The position numbers and the translations under genes are program-made. The notes under the pieces are model-generated. The model saw only the letters and a program-made list of their open reading frames with translations, was not told where the DNA came from and ran no database searches. Positions 1,096 to 30,663 of a stretch of 64,000 nt of DNA are shown piece by piece. The stretch's first letter is position 1. Every line of letters begins with the position of its first letter. The stretch is from NCBI RefSeq assembly GCF_964204645.1, contig NC_134033.1, positions 8,440,655-8,504,654 on the forward strand, given 5' to 3'. The DNA is from Tubulanus polymorphus. Taxonomy: Eukaryota > Animalia > Nemertea.

Positions 1096-1521
1096 AGTAA
1101 TAGGAAAAGTGGGCTTTCAGATATGGAGGTCGGAGGTCGAGCTCACTCAACCTCTCTCCCTCTAGAATGAAAGCCTCAATTCCTTATTACTCTTAATAAT
1201 TTCATATAAATGAACATTATTTACATGAATTTCATTTATTTTAAAATCATTTATATGTTAATTACAAAAGTAGTGTGAATAAAGTGTGAGAAATAATTCA
1301 TATTTTAACAGATTTCGAATAAAAATATAAGTAAAATAATTAGATTTTTAAACATAAAAGTGTGAGTAAAGTGTGAGTGAAATAACTCATATTTTAGAAA
1401 AGTGACAAGTTATTAACGAGTTGATTAAAATTAGATTTTTAAACATAAAAGTGTGAGTAAAGTGTGAGTGAAATAACTCATTTCATACCAGAGTACGAGA
1501 GTACGAGACACCTCTCATCAC
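1096..1521 (+). repeat. Left TIR of P1 (first ~96 bp self-complementary; internal AAAGTGTGAGT repeats)
   Basis: Reverse complement of 17456-17899. Confidence 0.93.
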
Positions 1522-1797
1522 AGCGAGGCGCTAGTGAGAACGGTCGATTGCTCTGTGATACACATATACAGTGAGTGCGCGTAACAACAGCTGCGCGTGG
1601 ATAGATCGATACATCGAGGTGCTACCGAGAACGGTTATTAACGCATGTACTATTACTGTAGTACAGTGATTGCGTGTCAGCTGTGCTCGGATAAATAGAT
1701 GCTGTGAGGCTTGGATGACAACGGTTAATAGCGCGCTTGTTATATATAAGGGGAAGTAATCCCCACTCATCACCACAAGTAATTTTTTTCCTTATAA

Positions 1798-4700
1798 ATG
1801 GGGGAGAATAAGACAGGATAAATTGATGTTAATGAAAATCAATATTATTGTACATATTGTAAAAAATACATTGATAAATCTCAAAAATCGCGTCATGAAA
1901 AATCTACAAATCATCTGAAAAATGTAATAGATTTTGAAACTCCAGAAAATTCCAATGAAAGAAAAGAACGATTAGATGATATGAAAAAAGATGAAATTAG
2001 ATGTATTGTTTGTAATGAATTTATAGTAAAAAGGAATTATAAAAGACATCTCGAATCACAAAAACACTATCAAAATTTAAATAAAAATGTTTTAGGATCA
2101 GAACATTTTGATGATAAACCTCAACAAGTAAAAAAATCAACTTCAAAAACTAAATCCATTTTAAATAAACCTTACATGGAAAATGTTAGAAATTATATCG
2201 ATTCACTAGAAATAAAAGATACAATTGAAATATTAGGAACATTACGTAGTAAAATTGGTCCTGCAGCTATTATATTTAGATTTTTTAAAGGTACAAAAAT
2301 AGAAGATTATAGTAAATTTATTGAATTCATGGAAAAATACTAGATTTGATAACAGATGTTGAATATCCAAAAATTAGTATTTCTGGGAAAGTAAGTTTTT
2401 TAAAGTCAGAAGATAAAATGGATTATGATATTCAAACACTCTCTGAAGAAAAAATTTTAAAACGCAAATAAAAGAGAAGTTAGAAAAAATATTTAATGAA
2501 TTTAAACGACATATTGAAGAAAGATATTTTGAGGGTTCTGGTTTAACATTGAATGAAATTATATTTTTAGATTTAAATGTTTATAATACAAAAATGATTA
2601 AAACATCAAAAAGTAAAACAATGTTTAAAAATAACTCAAACTTTACAACAGAAAAGGATATTAAAGCATCATCTTATATTAAAATACCATTTACAACAAA
2701 AGCAGTAATAAATATTCAAAATGAAGATAATAAATGTTTTCTATGGTCAATTATTAGTCGCTAACACCCAACTCAGGAAAATGTTTGTAGTACAACAAAT
2801 TACCAGAAATATGAAACAAGATATAAAATTGATCAATATCCAGTAACTATAAAAATGATTCCTAAAATAGAAAAAGATTATGATTTAAAAATAAATCGAA
2901 TTAATGCAATTACCAAAGACAAAAGGTGAAAATATTAAAGATTATATATTAGAAGCTTTATATTTAACAGAATATTATGATGATGAAAAAGTTATAGTTA
3001 CAAAAAAGTTATATTACCAAAAAGATGAAAATGAACATTATATGTGGTTAAAACAAATTGATTTATTCTTTAGAACAGAAAGTGATCATCATCATAAAAT
3101 TTATCTATGTAGGAAATGTTTATCTAAATTTATGACTGAGAATACATTATTAAAACATAAAGAATTATGTGATAATAAAGATTTTTGCAAATTAATAATG
3201 CCAACAGAAAAAGATTGTAAGTTGAAATTTACTAATCATAAATTTAAAAACATTGTTCCATTTGTAATTTATGGGGATTTTGAATCGTTGAATAAAGAAT
3301 TAACTAATCAAGATAGAAAAGAAATATATAATAAAAAGCAAATTTAAAAATCAATGGATAAAGGAAATGAATTAAATGAAGATATAATTCAAGATCCACC
3401 AATAATAAACACAAATGAAAAAGTTCATCAAAGAGCTGCTGCTTATGGAATTTACATAAAATCAAATTATCCTGAATTATATCAAAGTCAATATATTCCT
3501 TTTAGAGGTGAAGATGTAGTTAATAATTTTTGTAACAAAATAATTGAATTAGAAAGTGATTTTGCAAAATCATTAAACAAAAACAAAAGAATAGTTATGA
3601 CAAAAGAAGATGAAATTGATTTTAATTATGCAACTCATTGTTGTTATTGTGAAAAACGTTTTTATTCATTTGATAAAAAAGTTAGAGATCATGATCATTT
3701 AAATTCGAAATATCGTGGAGATGCTCATGAAGATTGTAATTTACAAGCTAAGAAAGCTAATTTCGTACAAATATTATTTCATAATTTATCGGGCTATGAT
3801 ACCCATCTATTTATAAAAACAATTATCAGGAAAATTGGGTGCAATTAATCAAGAAATAGAAGAATATAATGCTATGAATGGTACAAATGTAAGAAAATAT
3901 GATTTTAAACTATTAGCTAGACATCCGAAAATTATATTTCATTTCAATTTGGTTGCATTAGATTTTTAGATTCTTATAGATTTCTAGCAAGTTCATTAGA
4001 TAATTTAGCAAAAAGTTTAGTTGATATTGATTTTGTAATAACTCGACATTATTACCCAAATGACAAGATTTTAAATTATTGAGATATAAAGGAGCAATTC
4101 CTTATTCATTTTATAAAACACATGATGATTTTAATGTAACAGAATTATTAAAAGAACAATTTTATGATCAATTAAAAGAGGAGTATGTGAAAGATGAAGT
4201 GTTTAATAGAACATTAAATATTTGGAATCACTTTAAGATAAAAAATCATGTTGAATTAGTAGATTTATATTTAAAATCAGATGTTATGATATTGGCTGAT
4301 ATATTTGAAAAATTTAGAGAAGTTAATTCGAATCATTTTAATGTTGATCCTTGTTATTGTTATTCAAGTCCTGGTTTAACCTGGCAATGTGGTTTAAAAT
4401 ATACAAATGTAGAATTCGATTTATTAAAAGAACCAGACATGGTTTTATTATTTGAAAAATCAATTAGAGGTGGAATTAGTGGTGTTATGGGAGATAGACA
4501 TTTTAAAGCAAATGATGAATATAAATTATTATATATTGACGCCAATAATTTATATGGTTGGGCAATGATGCAACCTCAACCATACAAAAATCTTATATTA
4601 ACAGAAGTTGAAAGTGATGATAAAACTGATTGGGAAAGCGCAATTATTAGTTTAAAAGATGAAGCACCAATTGGTTATTTCTTTGTAGTTGATTTAGAAT

Positions 4701-7040
4701 ATCCTGATAACATAAAATTTAAAACAAGAAACTTACCATATTGCCCAGAACATTTAGCCGTAGATGATAGTTATTTAAGTGAATACCAGAAGAAAATAAA
4801 ACCGAAAGATCATGTTTTTACAGAAAAATTAATACTTACTCAAAACAATAAATACAATTATATTGTTTATTATAGAATGCTAAAATTTTATCTAAAACAA
4901 GGAATGAAAGTAAAGAAAGTACATAGATATATTGAATTTAATCAATCGAAGTGGTTAGAAAAATATATACAACAGAGAACCATATCAAAAACAGATTTTG
5001 AAAAAGATTTCTTCAAATTAATGAACAATAGTTTTTATGGTAAAACATGTGAAAATATTAGAAATAGAAATGAAATATTGTTAGTAAATAATTCTGAACG
5101 ATTGAGACATTTACAATCAAGTCCTAGACATTTAGGAAATAAAAGATTTGAAGATTATTTAACCGCAGTTAAATTAAAAAGAACGTCAATGAAATTTAAT
5201 AAACCTATATTCATTGGTTCAACTATTTTAGAAGTATCAAAATTATTAATGTATGATTTTTATTTTAATGTTTTACAACCACTTTTTGGGGAAAAGTATT
5301 GAAATATTATATTTTGATTCTGTATCAGCTGACACCCCAATATTATTAAAATGTAAAAATAAAATATTAATTAGAAGAATTTCAGAAATAATTCCAAAAC
5401 AAAATGAATGTTATATTTCGTATGGTGAAAAATTAATACAAATAAATGAATTAATGGATGTTCGGACAAGAAATGGATGGAAAAAATTAAAGAATATAAT
5501 CAGGCATAAAACAAATAAGAAAATCTATAGAGTTAGAACTAAATTAGCGTTTGTAGATGTTACAGAAGATCATAGTTTAATTAAACGAAATGGTGATGAA
5601 ACGAAACCAACTGATATAAAAATTGGAGATGAATTATTACATAAAAGATTTTTCCAAAGAATGAATCATATGTCATTTGATGAAATAATTGATAATATTT
5701 ATAATATAGAACCCGAAACATTAGAAGAAAAAGAATATTTTATCAAAGGATTTTTTATGGGAGATGGTTCAGCAGGTGTGTATAATTATGCTAGTGGAAC
5801 TCAATATTGTTGGTATTTATGTAATCAAGACTTGAAATTATTAGAAAGAATTAAGAAATTCTGTGAAGAAGTTTACTCATATAAAACATTTAGAATCGTG
5901 GATCATATGAAATCATCGGCAGTTTATAGAATACTCGTTAATAACCCTGAAGATTTTGCAATTAAATATAATGATGAATTCTATATTCATGCAATAGTGA
6001 AAAGTAATACTTCAACCAAAGAAATGATAGTTCCAGATTATGTATTAAATGCAAAATATAATTTAAGAAAATGATTCTTCATTGGATTCTATGCTGCAGA
6101 TGGTTCAAAAAGTTTCAAAAACCACAAAACAATATCTTTAGCTCAAAAATGAAAAGTTGCTATATCAGGATTGAATATATTATGCAATTCATTAGGTTTT
6201 AATTTTGAATATTGGATTGATTAAATTTAAACCAAATTGCTTTAATTTAAACCATGTAGAAAATGAGTTAACTGAAGAAGTTAAAGATTATTGGAAATAT
6301 ATAACCCGTCAGAATATGTTTATGATTTATCAACTGAAGATGGTACATTTAACTGTGGATTTCCATTAATAGCCAAAAATACGGACGCCTACATACTAAA
6401 AATCAAGACAAATGACATAACAAAAGACTTAAAAACATTAAAACATCATTTTGATTTTAGCAATTATCCCAAAGATCATGAACTATTTAGTAATGATAAT
6501 AAAAAGATTCCTGCTAAGTTTAAAGATGAATTAGGGGGTGATGAAATGATTGAATTTGTTGGGATAAGAAGTAAAATGTACAGTTATAGAACAAAAGATC
6601 ATGAAGCTAAAAAGTTAAAAGGAATAACAAAACATGTGGTTGATAAACATATAGAATTTCAAGATTATATCAAGTGTTTATACAACTCATTTGTTATGAA
6701 ACATAAAGTGAATTGTTTAAGATCAGAAGATCACGAGATGTACATAAATGAAGTTGAAAAAACTAGTTTGAATCCATTTGATGATAGAAGGCATATTTCA
6801 GATGATGGTATAAAAACATTACCTTATGGTTATCAAAATGGATCAATATCATCAAACTCGAAATCACTACTTGTTTCTTCTTTTTCATTTAATTGTTTTT
6901 GTATAATTTGTTTAGGTTCTCTTATCTTGTACCTCATTTCATCTCGCTCTCTTTGTTTCTTTTTGTTCGTTAATTCATCAAATGAATTTATAATATCAAT
7001 GTTTAAAAAATTAACAATCTTATTTAAAAAGAATTTATAA
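1798..7040 (+). pseudogene. polB: Protein-primed family B DNA polymerase of P1 (N-terminal Zn fingers, putative vOTU, EndoVII-like insert, exonuclease, polymerase), intein-containing; stops and frameshifts
   Basis: Fragments with VIYGDFES, FHNLSGYD, YLKSD, YIDANNLYGWAM, KLMNNSFYGK and YFD/TDA; collinear with P2 PolB; the true C-terminus probably lies near 6830. Confidence 0.93.
5319..6380 (+). mobile_element. Intein with LAGLIDADG homing endonuclease in PolB motif C (degenerate)
   Basis: YFD|SVSADTPILL (block A), VDVTEDHSL (block B TxxH), FIKGFFMGDGS and FFIGFYAADGS (two LAGLIDADG motifs), YVYDLSTEDGTF (block F), LIAKN|TDAY; 1062 bp, net in frame; absent from P2 (YFDTDSY). Confidence 0.93.
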
Positions 7041-8128
7041 TTAATTGAATCTGTTATTCTATTATCCACATAATATTTTAATATTTGTTTGAATGTTTCT
7101 TTTATATTTTCCATATCTTCTTCTGTTAATTTAGGTTTTTTATAATAATCGTTAAATAATAAATATAAATACATTTTCTTTTCTTGTGTGTTAAATGTTG
7201 ATGGAATAATTGTTTTTATTATATCTTTTTTTAGTCATTTCACCATTTTCATTTTCTATTATTTTCATTTTTTCAAGCCATTGCTTATATTCTGGTGTAT
7301 GATCTTCCATAGAAAATATATCAAATATTTCATCTATATATTTTAATTTTTGTTCTATAAGAATATCTCTAGTTTCTTCATCACCCCATAAATTCTTTTA
7401 CCATCCACATTCATTACAAAATATCACAGGACCTTCTTGTCTTAAGTACTCATAAATACATTGTGGGCATTTCTTTCTATCATAGCTTGGTAATAGATCT
7501 TCATTAAGCTCTTGGTATTTCCTTACGTTTTCTTTATGTTTTATTGTTCTATTATGTAGATTTAAATTACTTGTTGTAATAATAAATTTACAATATTTAC
7601 AATAATATTTTTTTCTTACTAATTCATTATATTGTTTATCTAACTTTTTAAGTGTTTCTTTATTATCTGGTAACGTTTTCCATATTTTATTTTTTCTAAT
7701 ATATTATTTTTTCTTTCATTGAATTCTGTTTCAAATTTATAAGAAATTTTATCTATATGTACTTTACGAAATTGATGATTCTCCCAATCTTCTATATTTT
7801 CAGGGCTATATTTTATTCGACAATGCTCACAGAAATGATCTTTTATATTATTCTTATCATAGAATAAGAAAGGTCTTTTCCAAATAACTTCAGGTTCACA
7901 TTCAACAGAATTACTATTACTTTCGTTACAATCAACATTAACCGTTGTGTCATTAATTTTACACTTCTCTGAATGTTTTTTAACATAATTTCTTGAGAAT
8001 AATTTATTACAATTTGGGCAGTTTATTTTAGGGGGTTTATAATTTTCATCATGTTTTTTCATATGTCGAGCCATATTACTTTTTCTTAGAAGTTCACCAC
8101 ACATTTCACATGGTATCTTCGCATCCAT
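6833..8128 (-). pseudogene. P1 accessory multi-zinc-finger protein (probably one frameshifted gene)
   Basis: CEMC..HMKKH, CPNC..HSEKC, CEHC..H..H and YCKYCK..H..H motifs; ORFs 7640-8128 and 6833-7174 appear joinable through frameshifts. Confidence 0.6.
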
Positions 8129-8196
8129 TTATTTAGGAAAAATTTTATTAAAATTAATTTTTAGTGATGGGCGGTAATTTTTTATGTTATAAATGA

Positions 8197-8983
8197 ATGG
8201 TAGAATTAAAAGAATACAGAATATTTGTTGATTCTAGAAGACATTCAAATTATAAATCACATAATTTATTAGTACAATTAGATAGAGAATTTAAGAATTG
8301 TGTTGATTTAAAATTAGTAAATATAAGTTTATTTAACTCATTTTACAATATATCGAATAAAACTATTGAACACAGAGCCTTTTTAATTTTTGATAAAGGT
8401 AAAAATGAATGGTCCTATATATATTATATATATTATATTATATTATTTTTATATATATATTAAATCAGGGTTATATAATTAGATACATTAGCACAAGAAA
8501 TTAATAGAAAAGCCTGGCACAAGTTAGGTAGTAATTCCGGGTTTAGTATTAGATTTTTAAAAAGTGATAGTTCTGATAGAATAAAGATAAGGTTGTCTCA
8601 TATTTAAAAACATAAATTTATGGTAAAGAAACCTATAGCTAAACTGTAAGGAATTCCTCCAGATAGATCTTTTACAAATATTGATGCTGCTACACCAAAC
8701 TTAATACCTTACACGCATTTTTATATTTTAATCGATCCTACAAAACCATTTGAAGCAACTAAAGATATAACTTGTAATTCTGGTTTATTAAACATTTTAC
8801 CATTGAAGAATGTTAAAGAATTTGGATTGCAAATAAATTATAATTAAACAGAATGTGATTTGAAACCATGCATTCCTCGTTTTAATAATTTTAGATTAGA
8901 AATTAGAAATCATAATGGATATTCAAATTGATTTGAATATCTTTCCTGTGATATATGAATTAGTTATAAGATGTAGAGAGTAA
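8197..8983 (+). pseudogene. Putative minor capsid (penton-like) protein of P1
   Basis: N-terminal IFVDSR, SFYNI and PGLYN motifs, ~250 codons, beta-rich; ortholog at 39281-40040. Confidence 0.6.
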
Positions 8984-8999
8984 TTTTTTTGATATATAA

Positions 9000-9302
9000 A
9001 TGAATATAACAGTAGGGCCGAGTATACGTTTTGGGTTTGATTTTAAACATGGTTAAGAAATGAGAATTAAACTAAATGATGTAATTACTGATATTAAACG
9101 TAAATCATTTAACAATGCATCAATGATTAATAAAGAAAATAATATTGATTTAATTAAAACACCTTTAGAGTATAATGAATTAAATGAAGATGGAATAATT
9201 GATGATATTAAAAACATATTAACTAAAATATATGATAATCATAAAAGTAGAAATGAAATAAATGTTGAAATAATCATCACTAAGATAACTAAATATTTTT
9301 AA
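9000..9302 (+). pseudogene. Conserved small P1/P2 hypothetical protein (premature stop)
   Basis: MNITVGPS...; ortholog at 38979-39263. Confidence 0.7.
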
Positions 9303-9326
9303 GATAGTAATTTTTTTGATTAATAA

Positions 9327-9548
9327 ATGAGTGATAATAAGTGGATAATAACTGGATTATATAATGGAGCATTACTATCAGTTGGAACTGTTGGTTATTC
9401 AATGGTATTAAAAAAAGTATTAAAAATGGGAAGTGTTAATGTTGATAGATTTTATATAAATGATATTTTAAAATTAACATTAGCAGTTACTTTATCTAAT
9501 TTAACTATTGATTATTTGGAAAAACAAATATATATCCCTCCCATATAA
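9327..9548 (+). CDS. Small hydrophobic Polinton protein (73 aa)
   Basis: Near-identical ortholog at 38703-38924. Confidence 0.75.
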   Translation: MSDNKWIITGLYNGALLSVGTVGYSMVLKKVLKMGSVNVDRFYINDILKLTLAVTLSNLTIDYLEKQIYIPPI

Positions 9549-9576
9549 GAAGTGTATAATTTTTTTTGTTAAATAA

Positions 9577-9999
9577 ATGGCTTCTGCAATTATAACTATT
9601 ATAGGATCGGCAGTTGTTAACGCTTTAGCATTTACAGGTGGTGGTTATTTATTTAAGCATATTGATAAAAATGGTTCATTATCAGAACAAAAAAGACATA
9701 ACTTAGCATTAGAGAAATATAATTAAGCTGCAGAAGAATATAGAGAAAAAAGACAAAACTATATGGATTACATCAATAAAGAATTATATGATCAGAAGAT
9801 TTCACATAGAGATTTTCAATCAGTCGATGATGCAATGAGTTTATATAACGCGGTAACCAATAAAGAAAAATTACATCTATACAAACCTAAATTATCAGAT
9901 TATTATACCCCAAGTAAAGAACAACAGAAATATGAAATAATTTGGATTTTAGGTGGAACTGTTATTATTATATTTGTAGCATATAAATTTACTAATTAG
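9577..9999 (+). pseudogene. Small Polinton protein with hydrophobic N-terminus and C-terminal TM helix (one stop)
   Basis: MASAIITIIGSAVVNALAFTGGGYLF...EQKRHNLALEKY; ortholog at 38261-38678. Confidence 0.75.
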
Positions 10000-10019
10000 T
10001 AATTATTTTTGCTAAATAA

Positions 10020-10454
10020 ATGGATGATAAATTTGATAATATTGATATTATTCCTCATGATATAAATAAAACTAATTTAAAAATATATTTAGAAAAACAA
10101 ATATTAGAATTTGAAAGTGACTTAAAGATAAAAAAGAAAGAATATTTAAAAAGTAAAATTATATATTATTTTATTATCAGTGGTTCAGTTACAATTAGTT
10201 CTGTAATAACATTTCTAGCAATATTCAGTCCATTAACACCTTTAGCTATATCAATTGGTGTGTTAGGATTATCATCAAGTGTTTTAACTGGTATAAGTTC
10301 AAAATTAAATATAAAAAGTAATAAAGATAAAATTACAACTAATATAAAAGAAATTAATAAATTGAAAAATACACTAGATTATATAATAAGTTTAAATGGT
10401 CATATTAGAGTTGAAGAACAAGATAAATTATTAAAAGAATTAATAGATTATTAA
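10020..10454 (+). CDS. Polinton membrane-associated protein (two hydrophobic helices between coiled coils)
   Basis: Intact 144 aa; ortholog at 37806-38240. Confidence 0.75.
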   Translation: MDDKFDNIDIIPHDINKTNLKIYLEKQILEFESDLKIKKKEYLKSKIIYYFIISGSVTISSVITFLAIFSPLTPLAISIGVLGLSSSVLTGISSKLNIKSNKDKITTNIKEINKLKNTLDYIISLNGHIRVEEQDKLLKELIDY

Positions 10455-10470
10455 TTTTTTTATTATATAA

Positions 10471-12545
10471 ATGGGGTTTCCAAAAGCTTTCCAATATAAT
10501 AAATAAATTAAATATAATATTCCTGCAATAGATTTTAATAAAGGTATTTCATATAAAAATTTTGTTTTAAATTCATTAACTAATTTAGAAATTTATGTTA
10601 CTGAATCACAGTTTTTTTATTTCTAAAATGGAAAATATATTTAATGCGTATGAAATTACTTTTACTGGAGATGAATATCATATATATAAAGTAAAATCTA
10701 ATATGAAATATTGGCAGAATCAATTAAATTTTGCTGTTTATTGTGCAACAACTGGTTGTGGTATAAGTTGGAATGATCATTTAAATAACTTAGATAAAAA
10801 TTTGAATTATTCTGATTTAAAGTTAATTCACACAATATTTAGATTTCACGCATATTTTCAAATCAGAATAATATTAAATGAATTAGAATGTCCTTTGATC
10901 TAAATATTTTAAAGAATTGGACAATAATATTAATCTATCTAAGTTTTATAAAATATGTAATGAATTTAATATAAATATTAATGCCGATTTTAGAGCGCAT
11001 GGTAAATTACAAGGTATTGGTGAACAGTATGAAATAAAAAGAATTGATTATATGCATAAAATTCGAGCTTATCATAATTATAAAATTGATAATAATAATG
11101 GTTGGATTAATTTCATTTTAGAAGATAGTGAAGGTTTTACTAAAGCTGGAATACAAAGGATAAATCAATCAATTAGAACTTATTTAATTTGTATTTTAGG
11201 TGCGCAAGTTGAAACAAGATCACCAATAGTTGGAAATGATAACACATCATTTGATACACAGAAACAATCTAAAGTATTATTTGAAGATTCAATTCATAAT
11301 GATAAAAAAGATCGATTCCAGAAAACATTGTAAGATATCAAAATTATTTAGATAAATCACATATTAGATTAAATTATTATATAGGCCCTAATCTATTAAT
11401 TATTTCTAATGATTACTGAATCACAGTTTTTTTATTTCTAAAATGGAAAATATATTTAATGCGTATGAAGTTACTTTTACTGGAGATGAATATCATATAT
11501 ATAAAGTAAAATCTAATATGAAATATTGGCAGAATCAATTAAATTTTGCTGTTTATTGTGCAACAACTGGTTGTGGTATAAGTTGGAATGATCATTTAAA
11601 TAACTTAGATAAAAATTTGAATTATTCTGATTTAAAGTTAATTCACACAATATTTAGATTTCACGCATATTTTCAAATCAGAATAATATTAAATGAATTA
11701 GAATGTCCTTTGATCTAAATATTTTAAAGAATTGGACAATAATATTAATCTATCTAAGTTTTATAAAATATGTAATGAATTTAATATAAATATTAATGCC
11801 GATTTTAGAGCGCATGGTAAATTACAAGGTATTGGTGAACAGTATGAAATAAAAAGAATTGATTATATGCATAAAATTCGAGCTTATCATAATTATAAAA
11901 TTTATGATAATAATGGTTGGATTAATTTCATTTTAGAAGATAGTGAAGGTTTTACTAAAGCTGGAATACAAAGGATAAATCAATCAATTAGAACTTATTT
12001 AATTTGTATTTTAGGTGCGCAAATTGAAACAAGATCACCAATAGTTGGAAATGATAACACATCATTTGATACACAGAAACAATCTAAAGTATTATTTGAA
12101 GATTCAATTCATAATGATAAAAAAGATCGATTCCAGAAAACATTGTAAGATATCAAAATTATTTAGATAAATCACATATTAGATTAAATTATTATATAGG
12201 CCCTAATCTATTAATTATTTCTAATGATTTAGTATTAAAGATGGGAAACATAATTGGTTATAATAATCTAATTAAAACTGCAACAATAAATAATTCATTT
12301 GGATTAAATGATATAAATAAAAAGATTATTACTGCTCCAAAATTAATTGAAGGTGAAAAAAATAAAAAACATATTCAAACAACTGAAACTAAACTGATAT
12401 TAAAACTGATAATGGTGCCGTACGGCACGATATTCAACATGACATAATTAAACTAAATGATGATAATAAATCCCATGAAAATGCTAAATTAGCTATAACT
12501 TGTATAGGAATTGTTATAGGAGGAATATTATATTTTAAATTTTAA
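10471..12545 (+). pseudogene. Conserved Polinton protein (WQNQLNFAVYCATTGCGISW motif), internally duplicated
   Basis: Ortholog at 36398-37789; stops and frameshifts. Confidence 0.75.
10598..12227 (+). repeat. 815-bp tandem duplication
   Basis: 10598-11412 repeated at 11413-12227 with a few substitutions; ORFs 10917 and 11732 are offset by 815. Confidence 0.92.
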
Positions 12546-12561
12546 TTTTTTTATTATATAA

Positions 12562-13987
12562 ATGACAGAAAATATTCCATTAGATGATGTGGATACTTTA
12601 GATGACCCCGTGGATACTTTAGATGACCCCTCTGATATAAGCGATGATTCACAACCTAAAATTAGTGAAACAAGTTTTAATGATCCAGAATATAATTCTA
12701 ATTTAGCAAGACCTGATACTAATGAATATGTTAATAAAGCACGTTCAACATTGGATATTGAAAATGAAAATCCAGGTTTATTAAAAATGGAATTAGAATA
12801 TGAAGAATTAACTGAAAAATTTAAACCAATATTAAAAAATTCTGGTTTCAATATAACTAATAAAGGTATGAATTATTTAGTAAAAGATTTGAAATATTTA
12901 AATGGTGATTATTATTGGCATTTGAAAGATGACTATTATTTTAAGATATCTTCTAATAAAAGTCTCGATAAAATAATAACAAAACCAACTTTAATTAAAT
13001 TAGAACAATCTAGAATTAAGAAAATCAATAATGATGTTATAACTGATGTTACAGAAGAAGAGATAACTCTTAATAGAATAGAATTTAAACGAAGAAATGA
13101 TGATTTTTTGAAGATAATAAATGAAAATTTAGAACCAGAAACAATTCCTAAAGAAGTTATTAATTCTAAAACTAGTAAACTTAAATCAACCGAAGTTCAA
13201 ACTGAAAAACTTTTACAAAATGGGTTACTTGATGCAACAGATCAAGAATTAGAAGATTTAAATATATTTTCTGATGAAGCAATTAGAGAAATTATTAGTA
13301 TAAGAAATGAAGCTGATAAAATTGCACATAATAAAAGTATAAGAGATATTAAAATTATATTTTAGAAAAAGAATTGACTAATGCAAATGAAGAAATAGAA
13401 CAATTAAAGTCTGATTTAGAACGACAAGTAATTGATAAAATAGAATATAGGCAAAAGAATTACGTTTAGAAAAAGAAATTGATAATTTAAAAGATAATTT
13501 AGAAGTACAGAAAGGTGAAAGAGATATATTATTAAAAGAATTTAGAAATAATTTTAAAAGGTTAAAAGATGTTTTCAAAAGATATCTAATAAAACCAAAT
13601 TCTAAAATATCATTGAAAGATAGAATAAGATTATTATTTAAATTAGACGGTATAACAATTCTTTCAATTCTAACAGCTGTAACTATGGTATTTACAACAA
13701 TAGGTTTAGCTATATCAAATTCATTGAAATGTACTCCTACTCCAAATAAACCGGATAAACCCCCAAATGATAATAATTCTATACAAGATAAAGTTAAGGA
13801 TGGTTTGAAAAAATTAGCAAAATATTTATGGGAACTATCTAAAAAATCTGCTGCAGCTTTACCCGGAGTTATTGCATCAATTGTTGGTTTTGTTTTTAAA
13901 TCTGCAGGGAATATTCTTAACTTTGCTGCTGAACATATTATTTTATTTTTAATTACAGTTGTAAGTGAAATTATTTTTGTTAAATAA
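12562..13987 (+). pseudogene. Large acidic/coiled-coil Polinton protein with C-terminal hydrophobic segments
   Basis: Ortholog at 34917-36381; frameshifted. Confidence 0.7.
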
Positions 13988-14735
13988 ATGAGTGGGAGTT
14001 ATATAAGTCCTTCTAAGAATTCTAGAATATCTAATGCTATTAAAGCAGAAAGATCACATCATATAATTACTCATAATCCTTCAAATATTAATCCCGATGA
14101 AACTTTATATGTTAGAATCCCTAGATTAACACAAAATACTTTTTATGTTCCAAATAGTATTTATTTATCAGCTGATATAAAAGTAACCGGGTAATAATAA
14201 TAATTATGTTGTTGATAATGTTGGAAGATATTTGATTAAAAAATTAACTATAAAGATTGGTCCAGAAACAGTTTTCTCATTAGATGATTATAATTTATTT
14301 ATGCATTATAAAGATTTATGGTTAACTAAAGAAAATAGAAATAATATGATATTTCAAGGCATCCAATCAGAAAACCAAAATAAATTAAGATCTGAAGCTA
14401 ATAATGCAGTAGTAGCCAATGACGTAGATAGTTTGATTAAAAAGATTTATGGAAGCAAATATAAAATTCCATTAGACTTTGAATTGATAAATAATAATGC
14501 ACCTTTATATAAATACGCAATTCAAGAAGATGTCATATTCGAAATAACATTTGCTCCTGTAAATTGTATTGTCTAGCGTTGTTAAATATATGGGTTATAA
14601 ATTATCGAATATATGTTTAGAATATGATACAGTAACTGATGAAAATATTGCTAACTCAATTCAAACTCAATGCAATCAAGTATTTTCATTATTATATGAT
14701 TATATTGATAAATTTAAAACTGTAACTGTAAAACT
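13988..14735 (+). pseudogene. Major capsid protein of P1, 3'-truncated
   Basis: Matches the N-terminal half of the P2 MCP up to YIDKFKTVT, then joins the integrase. Confidence 0.8.
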
Positions 14736-15620
14736 ATGGTAAGTTATGTAGATCAACAGTGGCAAGGAGATTTAATTGATATTAAAAATGTTAAGAAAGA
14801 TAATGATGATTATTGGTGGATCTTAAACATAATTGATATTTTTTGTCGTTATGTATGGAGCTTCCCACTTTATAGAAAAGATGCTGCACAAACATCACAT
14901 GTTTTAAGAAAATTTCTTTCAGGTGGTAAACTAAAGCCAGAAAAAATTCAATTTGATGATGGAAAAGAATTTGATAATTCATCTGTTCATGGACTCTTAA
15001 ATGTTCATAATATTAAATATTTTTCAACAAAATCAGTTAAAAAAGCAGCAATTGTTGAACGATTTAATAGAACATTGAGAACAAGAATATCAAAATATTT
15101 CACAGCAAATAATACTTATAAATGGATTGATATTTTACCGAAATGGATAAATGGTTATAATAATTCTTATCATTCTTCAATTGGAATGAAACCTATTGAT
15201 GCTAGAAAACCTGAAAATGCTGAAATTGTTTGGAATAATTTATATGGGGCATTTCTTGTAGATGATTTTGGTGAACCTAAATTCAAAGTTGGTCATAATG
15301 TTAGAATTTCTAAATATAAAAAGATATTTGATAAAGGTTACGATCGAAATTTTACTAGGGAAATATATAAAATAAAAAAGGTAATAACAACAAAACCATA
15401 TGTCTATAAATTAGAAGATTTAAGTGGTGAAGAAGTTGACGGATATTTTTATGAAGAAGAATTAAGTTTAAGTACTGAAAATCTGGAACAAGAATATAAA
15501 ATTGAAAAAGTATTAAAAACAAAAACTATTAAAAGAAAAAAATATTCTTTAGTAAAATGGGTTGGATGGCCAGATAAATTTAATGAATGGATATTATCAA
15601 GTAAAATTAAAAATATATAA
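14736..15620 (+). CDS. int: Retroviral-like (rve) integrase with C-terminal chromodomain; N-terminus deleted
   Basis: WQGDLID, IDIFCRY, QFDDGKEF, VERFNRTL (DDE); YKIEKVL..YSLVKWVGWPDKFNEWI chromodomain. Confidence 0.9.
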   Translation: MVSYVDQQWQGDLIDIKNVKKDNDDYWWILNIIDIFCRYVWSFPLYRKDAAQTSHVLRKFLSGGKLKPEKIQFDDGKEFDNSSVHGLLNVHNIKYFSTKSVKKAAIVERFNRTLRTRISKYFTANNTYKWIDILPKWINGYNNSYHSSIGMKPIDARKPENAEIVWNNLYGAFLVDDFGEPKFKVGHNVRISKYKKIFDKGYDRNFTREIYKIKKVITTKPYVYKLEDLSGEEVDGYFYEEELSLSTENLEQEYKIEKVLKTKTIKRKKYSLVKWVGWPDKFNEWILSSKIKNI

Positions 15621-16247
15621 ATGAATAAGGAATTATTTATATTTGAACCTCATAATATGTTAATTTCTGGTGTAACAAATTGTGGAAAAACTTATTTTAT
15701 ACTAAATTTATTAGAAACTATTTATAAAAACTTTTTTGATAATATAGTATTATTTTGTCCAACATATGAATTTAATCAAACTTATGATAGAAATATTACT
15801 ATAAATAACAAATTTATTATATTAGATCCTTAAACAGTTAAAGACAATTTAGATAATTGTATTAAAATAACAATTGATATATATAAAGGATCTAATACAT
15901 TATTTATCATAGATGATTGTGCAAATTTACATGATTCAAAAATTAGAGAGAGTGAGTTATGCTATTTAGCTTTCTCTGGGAGACATTTTGGGATAACAAC
16001 TTGGGTTTTAAATCAAAAATATAATTCAATTGTAAAAGACTTTAGGGAGAATATAAGATTTCTAGTTTTATTCTACAATAAAGATAGGAAATCGATGAAA
16101 AATGCGCTTGAGGAAAATGATATTATTCCACATGATTTACATAATGAATATATGGATAAATTGAAAAATAATAAACGATCAAAATTACTATTTCGATTAC
16201 AACACCCATTTAAATATGAATTTATTCAAACTCAACTAGCTTGTTAG
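15621..16247 (+). pseudogene. A32-like genome-packaging ATPase of P1 (one premature stop)
   Basis: Walker A GVTNCGKT, Walker B FIIDD, GRH; stop at 15831. Confidence 0.88.
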
Positions 16248-16490
16248 TCTAGTTGAATTCTAGTTTTTGGTAGTTGGAAAAAAATCAAATAAAAACAACA
16301 ATATTTCAACTAGCTTGTTAATCTAGTTGAATTCTAGTTACATTCTAGTTGAAATCTAGTTGTTAGTAGTTGAAACAAAAATCAAATCTAATTCAACAAG
16401 AAATAAATAAAAACAACAATATTTCAACTAGCTTGTTAATCTAGTTGAATTCTAGTTACATTCTAGTTGAAATCTAGTTGAATTCTAGTT
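16232..16490. repeat. Tandem array of CTAG-core motifs (TCAACTAG / TTCTAGTTGAA)
   Basis: Three degenerate longer units, each built from ~11-bp subrepeats. Confidence 0.8.
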
Positions 16491-16522
16491 GCAACAACAC
16501 AACTAATTTGTTTGTTATGTAA

Positions 16523-17098
16523 ATGGGAGGTGAAAAGAAAATAAAATCTAAAAATGGTGATGTTCCCATTGAAAAAACTTTAGATGATTTAGGAATAACA
16601 GAAACAAAATTAACTCCAGATGATGGTGCTTTAAATAATGTTACAACAAATAATAATTATGAATATTATCTTTATTGCAAACATCAATTAGAAATATTAA
16701 TAGCATCTGGGAAATGTAAAAATTTGACTTATAATGAATTAGATACAATGAAATCAGATGGAATTATTAGATTATTTAAGATTTATGAAACCGCGAGAAC
16801 AGCTAGAATTAATGATGCGATATCAGAAAATGTAGTAAAAGGTTATAGTAAATTATGTAATTATATGCTGCCAATTCAAGATGAAAATAGATTATATGCC
16901 GATTTGAAAAATTATTATTTAGTTATGACTGAATTGAATAAATGGATTGGATATTTATCATTTCAATTAGGTGGATTTATGACATTATTATCAACTGGAG
17001 TTATAACATTTTCAAATATTGAAAGTAAAAATATTTCTATAATAAATGAGCAAGGTGGAAGATGTGAAGAAAAAACCGAGAAGTCCGAAACAAATTGA
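16523..17098 (+). CDS. Conserved Polinton hypothetical protein X
   Basis: IEKTLDDLGI and YEYYLYCKH shared with 29688-30296. Confidence 0.75.
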   Translation: MGGEKKIKSKNGDVPIEKTLDDLGITETKLTPDDGALNNVTTNNNYEYYLYCKHQLEILIASGKCKNLTYNELDTMKSDGIIRLFKIYETARTARINDAISENVVKGYSKLCNYMLPIQDENRLYADLKNYYLVMTELNKWIGYLSFQLGGFMTLLSTGVITFSNIESKNISIINEQGGRCEEKTEKSETN

Positions 17099-17386
17099 AT
17101 GGTCTCGGCAATTAGAAATTAAATCACAAGAATATAAAAAGCTGTAAAAGAAAAAATAAGTAATAAAAATGGTGAAAATATTGTTATTTCTACTCCTTCT
17201 AATAATAGAATATTTGATAAATATCTATATTTATAGCTGGATTTGTAATTGTATTCATTTTGATTGGGTGTAGTTGGTATAAGAAATCAAATAAAATTCA
17301 TTATATTAATAATTCTGAAACAACTGCTATTAAAAATGAAAATACTTCTGAAATTCCAAAATTGACAATAAAAAAAAATGGATTAA
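17046..17386 (+). pseudogene. Basic small protein Y with TM segment
   Basis: VKKKPRSPKQIEW matches VKKKPRSEKQIIW of 30289-30657. Confidence 0.65.
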
Positions 17387-17455
17387 TATTTTAGAAAAAA
17401 GCAAAAAAAATAATTTTTTTTAAATTTATTGAATATCACCATGTGGGAAATGAAA

Positions 17456-17899
17456 GTGATGAGGGGTGTCTCGTACTCTCGTACTCTGGTATGAAATGAG
17501 TTATTTCACTCACACTTTACTCACACTTTTATGTTTAAAAATCTAATTTTAATCAACTCGTTAATTACTCGTCACTTTTCTAAAATATGAGTTATTTCAC
17601 TCACACTTTACTCACATTTTTATGTTTAAAAATCTAATTATTTTACTTATATTTTTATTCGAAATCTGTTAAAATATGAATTATTTCTCACACTTTACTC
17701 ACACTTTTGTAATTAACGTATAAATGATTTTATATGTTTTATAAATGATTTTAAAATAAATGAAATTCATGCAAATAATGTTCATTTATATGAAATTATT
17801 AAGAGTAATAGGGAATTGAGGCTTTCATTCTAGAGGGAGAGAGGTTGAGTGAGCTCGACCTCCGACCTCCATATCTGAAAGCCCACTTTTCCTATTACT
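17456..17899 (-). repeat. Right TIR of P1
   Basis: Reverse complement of 1096-1521. Confidence 0.93.
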
Positions 17900-18100
17900 A
17901 ACAGACACTCATAGCAGTTGAAACCGTTAACTAGTCATATTCTCTATTTGATCGGAATTGGAACAAGAGAAAAATTAGAAAAGAAATTTATTATTATAGG
18001 CATTGCTTGCTGGGGAGACTGGTATACGAATAACTTAACTTTGGGTATATTTTTTTATATAATATTGTGACTGACTTGAATTAACTGACTTGTACTTATA

Positions 18101-18812
18101 ATGTCAATGCCGGGGGAAAATTCCGAACATGATGCTAGTCACCTCGATGGGAATAAGGTCCTCACATCTGTTACACCAATGTGGAACATGAAATTGAAAA
18201 TACGAGGTCCGAATCACCCTCTGAGCCGGCCAAACCTAGTGACCCCATCTAGGTCAAAGTACCTGCGCCTAAAACTTTCAGCGCTGGCCACAATTTTAAG
18301 GTATGCTCGAGAGATTTGACAGCTATTGTGAGCTCATGGGGATAACTGATCCATCCGTGTAGAAGAATCATCTTTTGATGTATATGGACCATGAGTCATA
18401 TCTGGCGATTAAAAACCTTTACTTGGACAAACCGACTTACGATGAATTCTCGGAAGCGATTAAAGACCGTATGTCCTTGATAAAATCGCCTGGCGATTAT
18501 AAGCTCATGATTAAGGCACGCGAGCAAAAACAGCCAGAGAACCTGGCCGACGCGCTAATGGAGCTTGCCCAAAACGCCTATCCAGACGCTGGACATACAC
18601 TACAAGACGAGCTGGCTCGTGATCAGTTTCTGACCGGGATTAATCTACCATTAACAGCTAGGGAACCGTTGTACGTTTCCCAGCCGAAGACCTTGTCAGA
18701 GGCTCTGCCCCTGGCTAGGGGTTTTGAGTCAGCTCGCCGGTTAGCTGAAAAACAAGAGTCGAGGGGGAAACGGGCGATGGTAAACGAGGCCCAGCCAAAA
18801 CCCGTCGAGTGA
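18101..18812 (+). pseudogene. gag: Gypsy A gag remnant
   Basis: REQKQPE..LMELAQNAYP..LARDQFLTG capsid-like motif. Confidence 0.7.
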
Positions 18813-19036
18813 TCTCTAGTGGTTAACACCACGGGGAGAGCACACCTCTTAATGGTCAAAGCTCTTCTCCAGAGTGCACCCCGGAATCGGAAGCAGACCT
18901 ACCAACAGACAGTGACCGAGGGCCCGCCCCATTAGTGAGAAGTGTGTAGAATGTAGATATCCATGACACTAGCCTCTATTGTTCTGCTATAGTCAATAGT
19001 GTAGGAAGAATCTCTGCGCTTCTCGACATCGCTGGT

Positions 19037-19717
19037 GTGACTATGAAGACTTCAGTCTGGGAGGCGAGTAATGTGGGTGAAGTGGGGTGCCTGAAACCAA
19101 TTGATTTTGAATTGGTTACGGCTCCCGGCAAGGACGTTAAGGTTAGGGGTTCATACATTATTGTTGTCCAGGACGCTTTTAGTAAGTGCGTGGAGGCATG
19201 GCCAGTACGGAATGAGAAGGCTCCCACTGTAGCTAGAAAAGTCGTGGACGAATGGGTGACGACGTATGGCTGCCCAGAAAGCATTCACTCGGACCGGGGA
19301 AACAACTTTGAGTACAAGGTTTTTGCAGAAGTTTGTCGACTGTTGGGTATCAGGTATAAGACACGTACCACCTCGTATCACCCAATGGAAAATAGTCAGG
19401 TGGAAAACTTAAATAAATCAATCAAGGCCATACTGACCATATCCGTGAATGAAACCAGCAATGACTGGGATACGAAGCTGTCATCTTGCCTGATGGCATT
19501 CCGTTCTAGTTTTCAGGAGTCCACTGGCGAAACCCCTTTTTACCTGACCTTTTGTTCAGAGATGGTCTTGACTCTGGATATCATGTTTGGACCACCCGAA
19601 GAACCAGTGTACACTACTAAGTATAGCCGTGATGTACACGAAAACCTTCAGGAGGCGCACCATACGGTTAGGGAGAGACTGGAGGGGGGTCTCCCAAAGC
19701 AAAGACGGTCAACTTAA
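19037..19717 (+). pseudogene. Gypsy A integrase remnant (PR/RT/RH deleted)
   Basis: VVQDAFSK, IHSDRGNNF, YHPMENSQVENLN. Confidence 0.85.
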
Positions 19718-20275
19718 ATGATATGAAGCCAGCGTTTGGCCAGCCCCCTACCAACGTTAAGAGGGGTTTCCCTGCCAGAACGGATGAAAGAACAGTAGAG
19801 CCCCAACCAGCCCACTGAGAGTGAAAGTTCAGCTTTTCAGGGAGCGATGATGAGGAGATTGTCTGGAGGCGCCCAAACGACCGGAGTGTGGCAGTACCGA
19901 CAGATAACGCTGCACCAATCGAAGCAGAGGCTGAATTCGATCCCCAGCGGGTCAGCCTGTGGAAAATGCCCAGCCGCATCCACCGGTCGACAACGGAGAT
20001 CAATTTGGTCGTCTGCGCCCGAGGAGACCATTGAAACAGCCAGCCGGATTTGGGGACTTTGTTCGTCATTGCTCGATACCGGTAGCAAGTACAGCTGTTG
20101 ATGGTGACTGTACCACCTGCTGTCAGCGATGATCCAGAATCCGGAAGAAGAATGACCTGTGGCTGAAGACAGCGGGAAAATTGCTGCGAGACAGAAAACA
20201 CCTCACTGGTTAAACTCTCTGCTCTCCAGCCAACTTAACGTTTTTCTCTGTTTTCTTCTGTTTTTAGCTACCAAA

Positions 20276-21124
20276 ATGTCTGACGTGCTCCAGTTGGATA
20301 CGTTGAACGAAGAAACCCGAGATCTGAAGAAAGCTGCTGTGCATGATGTGCGGAGATACGTACAAAGCTACACAAAGAGGACTGAGCCTGAATGGACTCC
20401 GGACTTCAGCGCTCTGGTAAGTTCTTGTGAGCGCCACTTGTACCAGCCAGGGGACATGGTTGCGGGTTCGATAGTCGATGGCATCAAGGCTTTTCTGGCA
20501 TCAGCTAAGCGCTCACGGCCATATACGTCGTTGGGACGGTTTAATCGGCTGGGTACAGAACTCAGCTGTTTGATATCCCAGCATGGGGGTACGAGTTTAC
20601 GCCTCGAAGATAAGCTGGAGAAGCTTAAACGGCAGCTTCGAGTTGGAGATCTGCAGCGTCCGATTCTCCTGTTGAGCGACTCGATATTCAAATGAGTCAA
20701 GATCAGCGATGACTTGTATGTAATCGCTCACTCAGGAGAGCGAGTTGAAGACGTAAGTCAGTTGATGAGACTGATGAGCGCCAGTTTCTCTGCTGTCGTC
20801 GTTAACCACGGGGTAAATAACGTGCGGGAATTCGGGGACACAGTCAAGGAGATATACTCCTTAGCAAACATGATACGGCGGAAGTATCCACTCGTCCCGA
20901 TCTTCCACCTTCGCGTTCCAAAGGCCCCATGTATGAGAGGCAAGCGTGAGACGGTCATCCCGATTGACCGTATCAATCTACACTTCATGAAAGCTGGGTT
21001 CAGCACCATCGAACATCCAGATCTCGCAGACCATGACTACAGAGGGATCCATTATCGACTGAAGGCAGTCAACGAAGTAGTTCATCATGTTATTGCCTCC
21101 GTCAAGAGTCATCTAGAGTCCTAA
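20276..21124 (+). pseudogene. Extra ORF in env position encoding an SGNH/GDSL hydrolase domain (one in-frame TGA at 20693)
   Basis: LLLSDSI, HSG, NHGVNN and DYRGIH blocks; ORFs 20159 and 20714 share a frame; upstream polypyrimidine-AG acceptor. Confidence 0.65.
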
Positions 21125-21610
21125 ATTTTGGACACCTCACTACGGTCAATACCCACTCTACGAAACCTGGCCTTTTGACTCATGCATCCCTGCCTCAGTC
21201 CTGGTTCTGTGTATTAGAACTTTTTCTGCTGGCCTCTTACTATTACTTTTTCAGCGCTACTGGAATCATCATACATCATAGACCATCACTTGTATATAGA
21301 CCGCAAGTACTGACACGTGAGTAGGTGTGGGGATGGCGGTGCCAACACCAGATATCGGTAAATGGCCAGCCATCAACCCTGCGGCGGTGAACCCTTGTCT
21401 ACCTCTTGCTGCATATTCAGTGGAAGTGTAAATAATCATCTAAAACTCATGTGGGCACTGTGCTATAGCATCGTGTGTTATCTCTTGTAAACTTTTTGCG
21501 ATGGAAACCCTGCGCGTTGGAATTTAATGTTATCGTGTTGGACTTATAGTATTGCGAAAGTTATCTTTGGTACTGAACCGTGTTTCAGCACGCATTTTTA
21601 TGGGGAGTGG

Positions 21611-21841
21611 TGTAACGATTTGACTGCGACGTTATTATATTTTAGTACAGTGTATTCGTATTTGTAATAATAAATGTTAACGATAGGTGGCGTATCTATC
21701 GCTCTCTTGAAAAGAAACCATTGTCTTGGTGAGTTGTGTGTGCTTCTATTTGTCCCGGTTCAAGATTCTGATTGTCCCCTATTACAGCGTCGATTTACCC
21801 CGATATATCCATAAGAATACCCCAAGACGACAATTGTTACA
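21611..21841 (+). repeat. 3' LTR of Gypsy A
   Basis: Copy of 719-948, preceded by a polypurine tract. Confidence 0.9.
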
Positions 21842-22331
21842 TATTGTTTTCTTACGCTTCCGTGTCCTCTTCTCTTCCTTTGCCTTTCCTTCTTTTTATG
21901 TTACGTAACCGTACTTAAATCCTTAGGCGTGGGGTGGTAAATTCACATTTGAAGTGGTTTATCTACCTTTATTTCAGTCGCGTGGCTTCTGTCATTTGTT
22001 TCTAATGCGTAATTCTCGCATTTTTGTAGTAATTAATCATGCGGGTTCGAGTCCCGTGTTTTCATAATTTATGTGCAGCAACGAGCCTCGCTGTGGTCTT
22101 TTACCAATCACAGCCTTTGTTGTTGTGTGCGACGTTGCTGCACGTGTTTCGTTAGCCAATCGCGGAGTAGCTGGAGGTGAGAATGTGTTTTGATTTGCGT
22201 CTGAGGGAATAACAATGTGGACTAGAGGCTGTGTGCAGTTACTCCAGGTTATCTGGCCAGAATAACCACCAGTTCCAGTTCCCAGTGACACACGGCCGTA
22301 TCAACGAGATTAGTCTTTTAGTGTCTGCAAG

Positions 22332-25300: not shown

Positions 25301-26735
25301 AGCACAGGCCCAGTCACTATTTCTTGTCTCAATTTTGACGAATCCTTTCCTTGTAAGAGCCTAAGAACAAGAAAAGGACACCGATTTCATGGTTAGATAG
25401 CGGCGCCGATGAAGGGTGGAAATCCATCGTGGCAGGATGTATCACATAGTGATGATAAAAGTAAATTTTACTGGTCTAGGTGGCAGAATTTAGAAGTTTC
25501 CTACAGCGTTTAATATATCATTAAGGAAAGAGACGGTTTACCCGAATCAAAGTTAATCTTCTTACCTGAGATTTTCAGACGCGATGTGTTTTTCAGTCTT
25601 CACTCCGCCCGCACTGCAGCTCATTTTGGTTTCCCTAAAACTCTAACTGCTGTTCATTCTAGATATTTTTGGTATAGTATTCGGTTGGACGTTAAGTCAT
25701 GGCGTAGTATTTGCCGGACGTGTGGTGCCAGGAAGACGTCTCCAAGGAAAATGAGAGCAGCTCCATTAAACGACTACAGAGTAGAACTACCCTTGGAACG
25801 CATCGCTCTATATATTCTCGGCCCACTTCCCATCACTGACAGGGGTTATGCTGTGATTTTGGTCATTAGTGACTATTTCACTCGCTGGGTGGAAGCTTAT
25901 CCCTTGCCAAATCAAGAAGCTGAGACTGTGGCTCGTACTCTGGTTACGGAGTATATTTGTCGTTTCGGCATACCTCGGATGTTACACAGTGATCAAGGAA
26001 CAAATTTTTAGTCCAGATTAATGTCGGAATTATACCAGGTTCTCGATATGAAGAAGACCAGGAGCACAGCCTACCATCCTTGTTCTGGTGGTTTGGTCGA
26101 AAGATATAATTGAACCTTATTAGATGGTCTGGCTATGACAGTGAATAAGAACCAATCTAATTGGGATAGACAGATTCATTTTATCACCATGGCTTATCGT
26201 TCGTCCGTCCAAGACAGTACCGGGTTTAGTCCAAACTATCTGATGTTTGGCAGAGAAGTAAACCTGCCTGTTGATATAGTCTCTGGTGGTCCTATTACGA
26301 ATGTTTCTGTGCCTATCATAATTTATAGCCTGGAGCTACAGGACAGGTTAAGGTCGGCATTTCATCACAATCGCAAACACCTGGCTCTCAGAGCGAAGCG
26401 TAACAAGAAAAACTAGGATATGAAGGCCTATGGTCAGAGATATAAAGTTGGAGATCTGGTCTGGGTACACAAACCAGCAGTCAAGTCAGGCCGATCGTCA
26501 ACATTGTCGTGCCACTGGCATGGACCGTGTTGTTAAGAGTTTGTTTAACGATTTCGTCTATGAAATATCTGAACTCGAAGCTGACAGATCGATCAAGGTC
26601 TACTATGACCGGCTTAAACCATATATTTCTGAGCCGCCCGTCGATGATGATGTCGAAGCTCAGACTCATCATGTTGTGACGTCTTCAGGCCGACAGACGA
26701 AACGTCCTGACCGCTTCGGCGAATGGCTTTTATAA
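22332..26735 (+). pseudogene. Gypsy B gag-pol (CCHC knuckle, protease, RT, RNase H, integrase)
   Basis: CYNCGEMGHIARFC; LIDTGA; SPWASPIV, CVDYRRLN, YLDD; LDTDAS; ISDYFTRW, HSDQGTNF; many stops. Confidence 0.9.
22761..23484. mobile_element. Non-autonomous DNA transposon (MITE) inserted in Gypsy B gag
   Basis: ~32-bp inverted ends ACTATAGTCTAtCCCAGTGGTTATGATCGCGG. Confidence 0.75.
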
Positions 26736-28249: not shown

Positions 28250-28580
28250 TATAATTAGGATTAGCGCATGCGCATTGATCAAAAGTGCGCACGAATGCGC
28301 GGTTTGCTCAGTGGTATGATTTAGATATTTCATGTCGGTTGTTTCTATTTACATAATTATATATTCATTATGTAAATATAATTATGATTAACGCATGCGC
28401 ATTAAGCAAAAGCGCGCATGAATGCGCGGTTTGCCTAATGCGAACACTTTTAGATATTTCATGTCGGTTGTTTCTATTTTACACAATTTACATAATTATA
28501 TATAATTATGATTAGCGCATGCGCATTAAGCAAAACCGCGCACGAATGCGCGGTTTTGCCCAGTGGTATTATTTAGATAT
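28250..28580. repeat. Three ~125-130-bp tandem repeats with GCGCATGCGC cores
   Basis: Repeated TTAGCGCATGCGCATT..AAAA..GCGCACGAATGCGCGGTTT. Confidence 0.8.
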
Positions 28581-30657: not shown

Positions 30658-30663
30658 AATAAG

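Follow-up and report, generated by a model that had tools for sequence, protein, structure and literature searches.

The intein of the Mimivirus PolB (pol-c, R322 residues 1053-1403) shares with the insert described here the site YxD/TD, the Ser start and the block VTEDHS, and both also have two LAGLIDADG motifs, a Lys-Asn end, a +1 Thr and a length of about 350 aa (PMC549080, available text). Polintons or Mavericks (polintoviruses) have in common with the element carrying this insert the terminal inverted repeats, the 6-bp duplication, pPolB, the integrase, the ATPase and the capsid gene, to which the intein is an addition. The intein of Chilo iridescent virus lies in ribonucleotide reductase. 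It likewise occurs in an animal-infecting virus and differs in being a glutamine-type intein of a free large virus that is not host-integrated (PMC549080, available text).

Inteins in viral-like DNA polymerases were reported on nuclear scaffolds of Klebsormidium, Tetrabaena and a labyrinthulid, together with Anaeramoeba inteins, in the available text of PMC10710043. As in the element described here, the intein reaches the eukaryotic nucleus in those cases inside a viral polymerase, with viruses as vectors. The words Polinton, Maverick, animal and metazoa have no occurrence in the main text of PMC10710043, supplements aside. The HNH and VSR inserts in Polinton pPolB2 (PMC10748475, available text) likewise place a nuclease domain in a Polinton polymerase, and the main text of that paper has no occurrence of intein, LAGLIDADG, Hint or homing. 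A single sentence of speculation in the available text of PMC11161782 holds that nuclease inserts of polinton pPolBs may stem from intein invasions. In the available text of two reviews, inteins are stated to be absent from metazoan genomes (PMC5784728, PMC8529194). No report of an intein with a splicing domain in a Polinton polymerase was found; subscription papers, repeat databases and supplements may hold one. None is described in the available text of PMC12220804, PMC11161782, PMC3671162, PMC13768754, PMC10710043, PMC10748475, PMC5784728, PMC8529194, PMC6446971, PMC10236294, PMC549080 and one 2026 preprint. According to the preliminary description of this DNA, inteins are not known as a standard feature of Polintons; within these sources this holds, the nearest precedent being the speculation in PMC11161782. 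The insert is a homing-type intein in a class of host for which no report was found.

The window is the whole stretch of 64,000 nucleotides that was analyzed. Two Polinton-type elements were detected in it, with the following features:

1096-17899, element 1, a Polinton (intein-bearing, decayed); its terminal inverted repeats start AGTAATAG
1090-1095 and 17900-17905, target-site duplication AACAGA of element 1 (6 bp)
1822-5318, plus strand, pPolB N-extein of element 1, with several broken reading frames and YFD at its end
5319-6380, plus strand, predicted intein of 1062 bp and 354 codons, with Ser1, block B TxxH, two LAGLIDADG motifs, block F Asp and terminal Lys-Asn
5559-5576, plus strand, splicing block B VTEDHS, found in all 24 Polinton-type inteins listed
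5742-5768, plus strand, first LAGLIDADG motif IKGFFMGDG, acidic residue retained
6078-6104, plus strand, second LAGLIDADG motif FIGFYAADG, acidic residue retained, downstream of the first stop
6315-6380, plus strand, C-terminal splicing region, with YVYDLST at 6315-6335 and LIAKN at 6366-6380
6381-6839, plus strand, pPolB C-extein of element 1, with the +1 Thr and the second catalytic Asp (TDAY), alignable to element 2
14187-14576, plus strand, putative major capsid protein fragment of element 1 (Capsid_N, weak: E 0.0017, under cut-off)
14718-15620, plus strand, retroviral-type integrase with chromodomain of element 1 (rve 33.3 bits, cut-off 32.6)
15834-16247, plus strand, packaging ATPase fragment of element 1 (Pox_A32 26.2 bits, cut-off 22.8)
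26936-45094, element 2, a Polinton of a related family with an empty allele, with terminal inverted repeats and the 6-bp target-site duplication CACCTC
40441-42750, minus strand, pPolB frame of element 2, with the uninterrupted site YFD/TDS at 40972/40971

Element 1 was classed from its sequence as a Polinton/Maverick by its terminal inverted repeats, 6-bp duplication, pPolB, integrase, ATPase and weak capsid match. The core of its polymerase (4064-5302) matched DNA_pol_B_2 (PF03175) at 54.1 bits (cut-off 25.8). No maturation protease family was detected among the scanned frames of the elements, a subset of all frames. The polymerase of element 1 is also broken, with a frameshift just 5' of the insert (about 5296-5302) and several breaks between 1822 and 4064. 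Element 2 reads YFDTDSY, and its DNA could be aligned to element 1 before the insert and again after it. The integrase-ATPase block displayed the same direction in both elements (14745-17019 and 29721-32376) and the polymerase-to-capsid block was inverted, so that the two Polinton families differ in gene arrangement.

Several other features were identified in the window. Element 1 contains an 815-bp tandem duplication (10598-12148) in which 300 bases are 100% identical. Element 2 encodes a 229-aa frame (28707-29396) with zinc-binding and HNH-like motifs and no Pfam match at E 0.001, which we take to resemble giant-virus endonucleases. Decayed frames of a Gypsy-type retrotransposon are located between both Polintons (18363-26735). 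Two remnants of MULE-type transposases lie at 48423-52391; the minus-strand one has ALS2CR8, the other ZSWIM3_N and an RNaseH-like domain. A two-copy repeat with a tRNA-like look (21887-22101 and 56225-56440) is a SINE candidate for which neither ARAGORN nor Rfam gave a match, and 56867-57506 is occupied by a 155-bp tandem array.

Motif C of the element 1 pPolB is interrupted in frame by 1062 bp between YFD and TDAY. The first residue of the insert is Ser (5319), and Thr follows directly after its LIAKN end. An intein had been proposed at 5319-6380 in the preliminary description; the coordinates proved exact, and all of the motifs it named were found at the places given. The stops and compensating frameshifts it had reported were confirmed as well. 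In-frame stops are located at 6072 and 6150, and a frameshift at about 6205 is compensated by another at about 6287, the original frame between the two containing six further stops (6222-6284). These breaks lie in the 3' third of the intein, and the element 1 copy is dead and unable to work. The insert and the host gene of element 1 have GC contents of 0.26 and 0.24, respectively, and a third-position GC of 0.14 each.

Profile searches on the insert detected TIGR01445 (intein N-terminal region) at 29.6 bits (cut-off 24.5) and LAGLIDADG_3 at 30.7 bits (cut-off 22.5). With both profiles over their cut-offs, the earlier intein call stands. Pfam Intein_splicing matched at 29 bits (E 1e-6), under its cut-off of 35.8, and the homolog P0003 scored above that cut-off. 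The closest solved relative by sequence was PI-PkoII (E 2e-5). A model of the insert predicted from 21 sequences had a pLDDT of 80.5, and its best Foldseek matches were endonuclease-bearing inteins (E 2e-13 to 4e-12), followed by mini-inteins and I-DmoI; PI-SceI was also matched. These matches of the model to solved inteins and mini-inteins indicate a Hint fold. The class 1 residues Ser1, block B Thr and His, block F Asp, Asn354 and +1 Thr were all present. The penultimate residue of the element 1 intein is Lys and not His, and the other Polinton members end in HN, KN or SN. As for absence from homologs, the site was empty in element 2, in sequencing reads and in 126 of the 141 polymerases used for the tree described below. 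Both the sequence and the predicted fold identify the insert as a canonical (class 1) intein with a two-motif LAGLIDADG endonuclease, and the gene that contains it is proviral and not one of the host.

Two other kinds of insert were considered and rejected. A spliceosomal intron or nested transposon was ruled out because the insert is coding and in frame, and a hedgehog-type Hint domain because an endonuclease and a C-extein are present.

Run X10 consists of raw DNA reads from organism A; in the 12% or so that was sampled (1934 million letters), the intein was covered to a depth of about 100 to 260 reads. Most reads departed from the window at its breaks, namely 158 of 164 and 102 of 106 at the first two stops, and 62 of 67 and 115 of 149 at the frameshifts, and the breaks appear to be private to the element 1 copy. 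At least 54 reads in four listed joints skipped the intein, indicating that empty alleles are present. Reads 99% alike to the window numbered 41 among 4338; so few of them mean that X10 represents at least another individual or copy set, and the species of the window is not proven by it. A depth of 200 would correspond to a 10-Mb genome if the intein were single copy, which suggests many copies. A possible RNA run yielded 0 contigs and speaks neither for nor against expression. Run X5, a marine metagenome, accounted for a small share only and was not used for habitat. After the intein, at 6381-6389, the filled allele reads TDA, and element 2 and the empty-site reads have TDS; the TDA flank is possibly co-converted or of an escape type.

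P0001 denotes the element 1 intein translated with X at the stops, the form in which it was scored against the profiles above. The best 6 of 645 longer homologs (120 listed) were of the pPolB type with an unbroken intein at the same site and 43-56% identity. Among the listed homologs, giant-virus-type PolB inteins ranked next with up to 40%, Mimivirus having 36%. A total of 270 full-length inteins were obtained from 356 proteins: 232 were in Mimivirus-like PolB, 18 in pPolB and 20 in proteins without such a match, the latter including P0001 and P0156, which are almost without extein. All 23 other Polinton-type inteins listed keep both endonuclease motifs and all splice residues, with one exception that has Ala at +1. 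The cluster of P0003 has 136 members, and the 15 listed (seven full-length filled, six empty and two fragments) sit on contigs of 57 kb to 1 Mb. From polymerase type and copy numbers, the homologous proteins would belong to Polintons. The intein of P0007 is encoded in a pPolB without BLASTP match (E 1e-3) to three other host polymerases, suggesting that the intein crossed between distant Polinton-type polymerases. Viral contigs scanned with one Polinton intein gave no match. Alignment-based scans gave 160 loci among the matches listed, all of them giant-virus-type PolB, and Polinton loci may be missed by these scans.

Some related sequences were found outside this setting. P0423 is a Polinton-type polymerase with 58% identity to the one encoded by element 2; UniRef assigns it to Sulfurimonas sp., but it is probably eukaryotic DNA in a bacterial bin. 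In P0048 and P0153 (residues 267-620), an intein of the giant-virus pol-c family is located in an ADP-ribosylglycohydrolase at the site GGD/TD. This intein is 60% identical to a PolB intein and has apparently jumped into an unrelated gene at a look-alike site. Related inteins were also found in type II topoisomerases and an XRN exonuclease, and one protein had ClpP and intein domains (P0268, P0336, P0339, P0193).

The origin of the intein was analyzed by phylogenetic trees of 180 rows, comprising 165 of 274 inteins after near-duplicate removal and 15 from loci. In the FastTree phylogeny of all 180 rows, 11 Polinton-type inteins formed one clade (100) inside a 57-row PolB pol-c group (99). The Polinton clade was supported at 100 in all trees (11 of 180, 11 of 80 and 7 of 44 rows), and IQ-TREE gave it 100/100 with both 80 rows (quick) and 44 rows (careful, LG+G4). 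It was joined with 96/96 to ten PolB inteins, including those of the contigs L082, L085 and L097, which carry giant-virus MAG labels. In an AU test, a basal Polinton clade adjoining the outgroup was rejected (p 1e-5), and sisterhood with the Mimivirus group was not (p 0.18); another AU test (p 0.0009) was confounded by three non-PolB inteins, the test with p 1e-5 being cleaner. These trees were calculated under LG+G4 with no mixture model and no archaeal inteins, from rows picked after the first tree, and the Polinton and giant-virus inteins are both AT-rich. With pol-b inteins as the root, the direction from giant virus to Polinton is likely.

These results agree with the preliminary description in placing the insert at the pol-c site (YxD/TDS), since it lies at YxD/TD and groups with giant-virus pol-c inteins. 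The likeness to the Mimivirus intein that it had pointed out was also recovered (351 aa, Ser start, KN end, 36% identity), although the nearest giant-virus inteins are uncultured ones and not Mimivirus. Its proposed giant-virus origin is supported by the nesting of the Polinton inteins among giant-virus pol-c inteins. It had further proposed that the intein was acquired from a co-infecting large DNA virus; the giant-virus source was retained, but not an event in element 1, as all 11 tested inteins form one clade.

A recent and direct capture by element 1 from a co-infecting giant virus, independent of other Polintons, would explain why the site and the ends match giant-virus inteins, and giant-virus relatives were far commoner in the searches. 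However, the nearest relative of the element 1 intein is Polinton-type (56%) and the best giant-virus intein reaches 39%, the Polinton-type inteins all form one clade, and the insert has the base composition of the host gene, in overall as well as third-position GC. Such a recent capture is contradicted by the trees and was rejected, and we regard it as barely credible. The nearest relative being Polinton-type and the base composition being equal to that of the host gene, the capture appears to be old. The sequences therefore point to one old transfer from a giant virus into Polintons as the likely origin, and the element 1 intein was likely inherited or received from other Polintons long after this single transfer.

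The polymerase phylogeny was based on 141 cores cut upstream of the site, 126 empty and 15 filled; P0007 and five rows that were short or without readable site were left out. The search that supplied the empties was restricted to proteins of 422-1346 aa, a range that excludes full-length filled proteins. Filled copies were scattered among empty relatives. The filled state needs 12 changes on this tree, at least 10 of them forced by well-supported branches. Shuffles needed 14.4 changes on average and were as low in 6-8 of 500, indicating some clustering of the filled copies. The empty P0142 is identical to filled proteins over 70 residues before and 120 residues after the site.

The empty sites were compared between an invaded and an uninvaded clade of similar diversity (83% identity in the uninvaded clade vs 80%). 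In the invaded clade (61 rows), all eight filled members have YMD before the intein. Ten of its 53 empties keep YMD/TDS and 43 are altered (CDS 25, TDA 12, TDG 5, ADG 1), and the dropped row P0477 (CGS) is, by its flanks, one further variant of the invaded family. The uninvaded clade displayed D/TDS in 57 of 57 members and an altered site in 0 of 57, the dropped row P0445 (TDN) being one exception by its flanks. To the uninvaded clade on the tree, three intein searches added no filled protein. A Fisher test was discarded, as its rows were not independent and its counts had been set ahead of the tally. The six listed empties of the P0003 cluster are 95-99% identical to filled proteins upstream and show three site variants. 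In the clade of the window itself, TDS is retained by 13 of the 14 empties, and the escape signature belongs to one lineage only. These site sequences suggest escape from the homing endonuclease, or co-conversion of the flanks.

The intein could be real and yet no longer home, with one early entry, vertical inheritance, and empties arising by precise loss or by recombination with empty relatives. The main groups of the intein tree recur in the polymerase tree, the two being broadly alike except for P0007, so that part of the distribution is explained by ancient inheritance followed by many losses. Polinton inteins are 37-56% identical, like the polymerases (37-44%, three N-exteins), and the count of changes cannot separate gain from loss. 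However, both endonuclease motifs are retained in every lineage, which from the logic of the homing cycle is not expected without homing. A lateral jump is also needed for the P0007 polymerase, given its lack of a BLASTP match (E 1e-3) to three other hosts, and the empty sites are changed in the invaded lineage. The loss of homing is considered decidedly unlikely, and persistence of the intein by homing between Polinton copies is, on these comparisons, likely.

An unbroken copy would direct synthesis of the polymerase as a single precursor containing the intein. Judging from the motifs, the fold and the established chemistry of class 1 inteins, excision of the intein would be carried out by Ser1, Thr and His of block B, Asp of block F, the terminal Asn and the +1 Thr, and it would join the two catalytic aspartates again. 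Another Polinton copy with an empty site would be a target for cutting by the endonuclease, either in the chromosome or in replicating free elements, and repair from the filled copy may convert the cut empty copy. Empty copies with a changed site, as in one lineage, may evade cutting.

Taken together, it is probable that a canonical LAGLIDADG intein, dead in this copy, lies in the Polinton polymerase motif, and that its family entered Polintons once from a giant virus and persists by homing. A further reading is that a giant-virus intein is still splicing and homing among Polintons in animal germ lines, and that the empties change the catalytic motif (DCDS, DTDA, DTDG). We propose this tentatively, as plausible and somewhat short of probable. 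If true, it would be the first working intein carried in animal chromosomes, and a selfish gene and a family of endogenous viruses would be engaged in an arms race.

The host of the intein-bearing Polinton is probably an animal, as judged from its surroundings and relatives. Flank domains above cut-off were ZSWIM3_N, ZSWIM1-3 RNaseH-like, ALS2CR8 and PHD, and the flanks also contain a PHD-plus-RT LINE, a Penelope-like RT, Gypsy elements and MULE, a transposon mix that is presumably typical of animals. No host gene was found in the flanks, where 51 and several further frames yielded transposon domains only; neither a tRNA nor an Rfam match was obtained. The intein and its mechanism could be as described and the host genomes still non-animal (protist, alga or another repeat-rich eukaryote), in which case the animal claim would fall. 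Such hosts would be consistent with flanks of transposon domains without a host gene, with the Atlas clusters for the flanking MULE transposase, which are mostly plant and FAR1-like, and with the viral polymerase inteins in algal and labyrinthulid nuclear scaffolds (PMC10710043, available text). However, the ZSWIM3_N, ZSWIM1-3 RNaseH-like and ALS2CR8 domains and the LINE, Penelope-like and Gypsy sequences argue against them. So do the Atlas look-alikes of P0003, which are commonest in Arthropoda and Mollusca and, with scores below 0.9, are a lead only. We consider non-animal hosts unlikely.

If the host is an animal, the intein would be an exception to the absence from Metazoa, and protein splicing and homing would be possible in animal cells via endogenous viruses. 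As the family has many copies, in which the site is filled, empty or altered, a single genome would be enough to test the homing cycle and the emergence of resistant sites. As a dated marker, the intein may also record that giant viruses and Polintons exchanged genes; their polymerases are too distant for ordinary homing, which points to shared cells. The pPolB that carries the intein gave no BLASTP match to the N-extein of Mimivirus at E 1e-3. In contrast to the Mimivirus case, the intein described here is located in the protein-primed polymerase of an integrating Polinton with many nuclear copies. It differs from the nuclease inserts described in the available text of PMC10748475 in that a full splicing domain lies in the catalytic motif and both empty and filled alleles occur.
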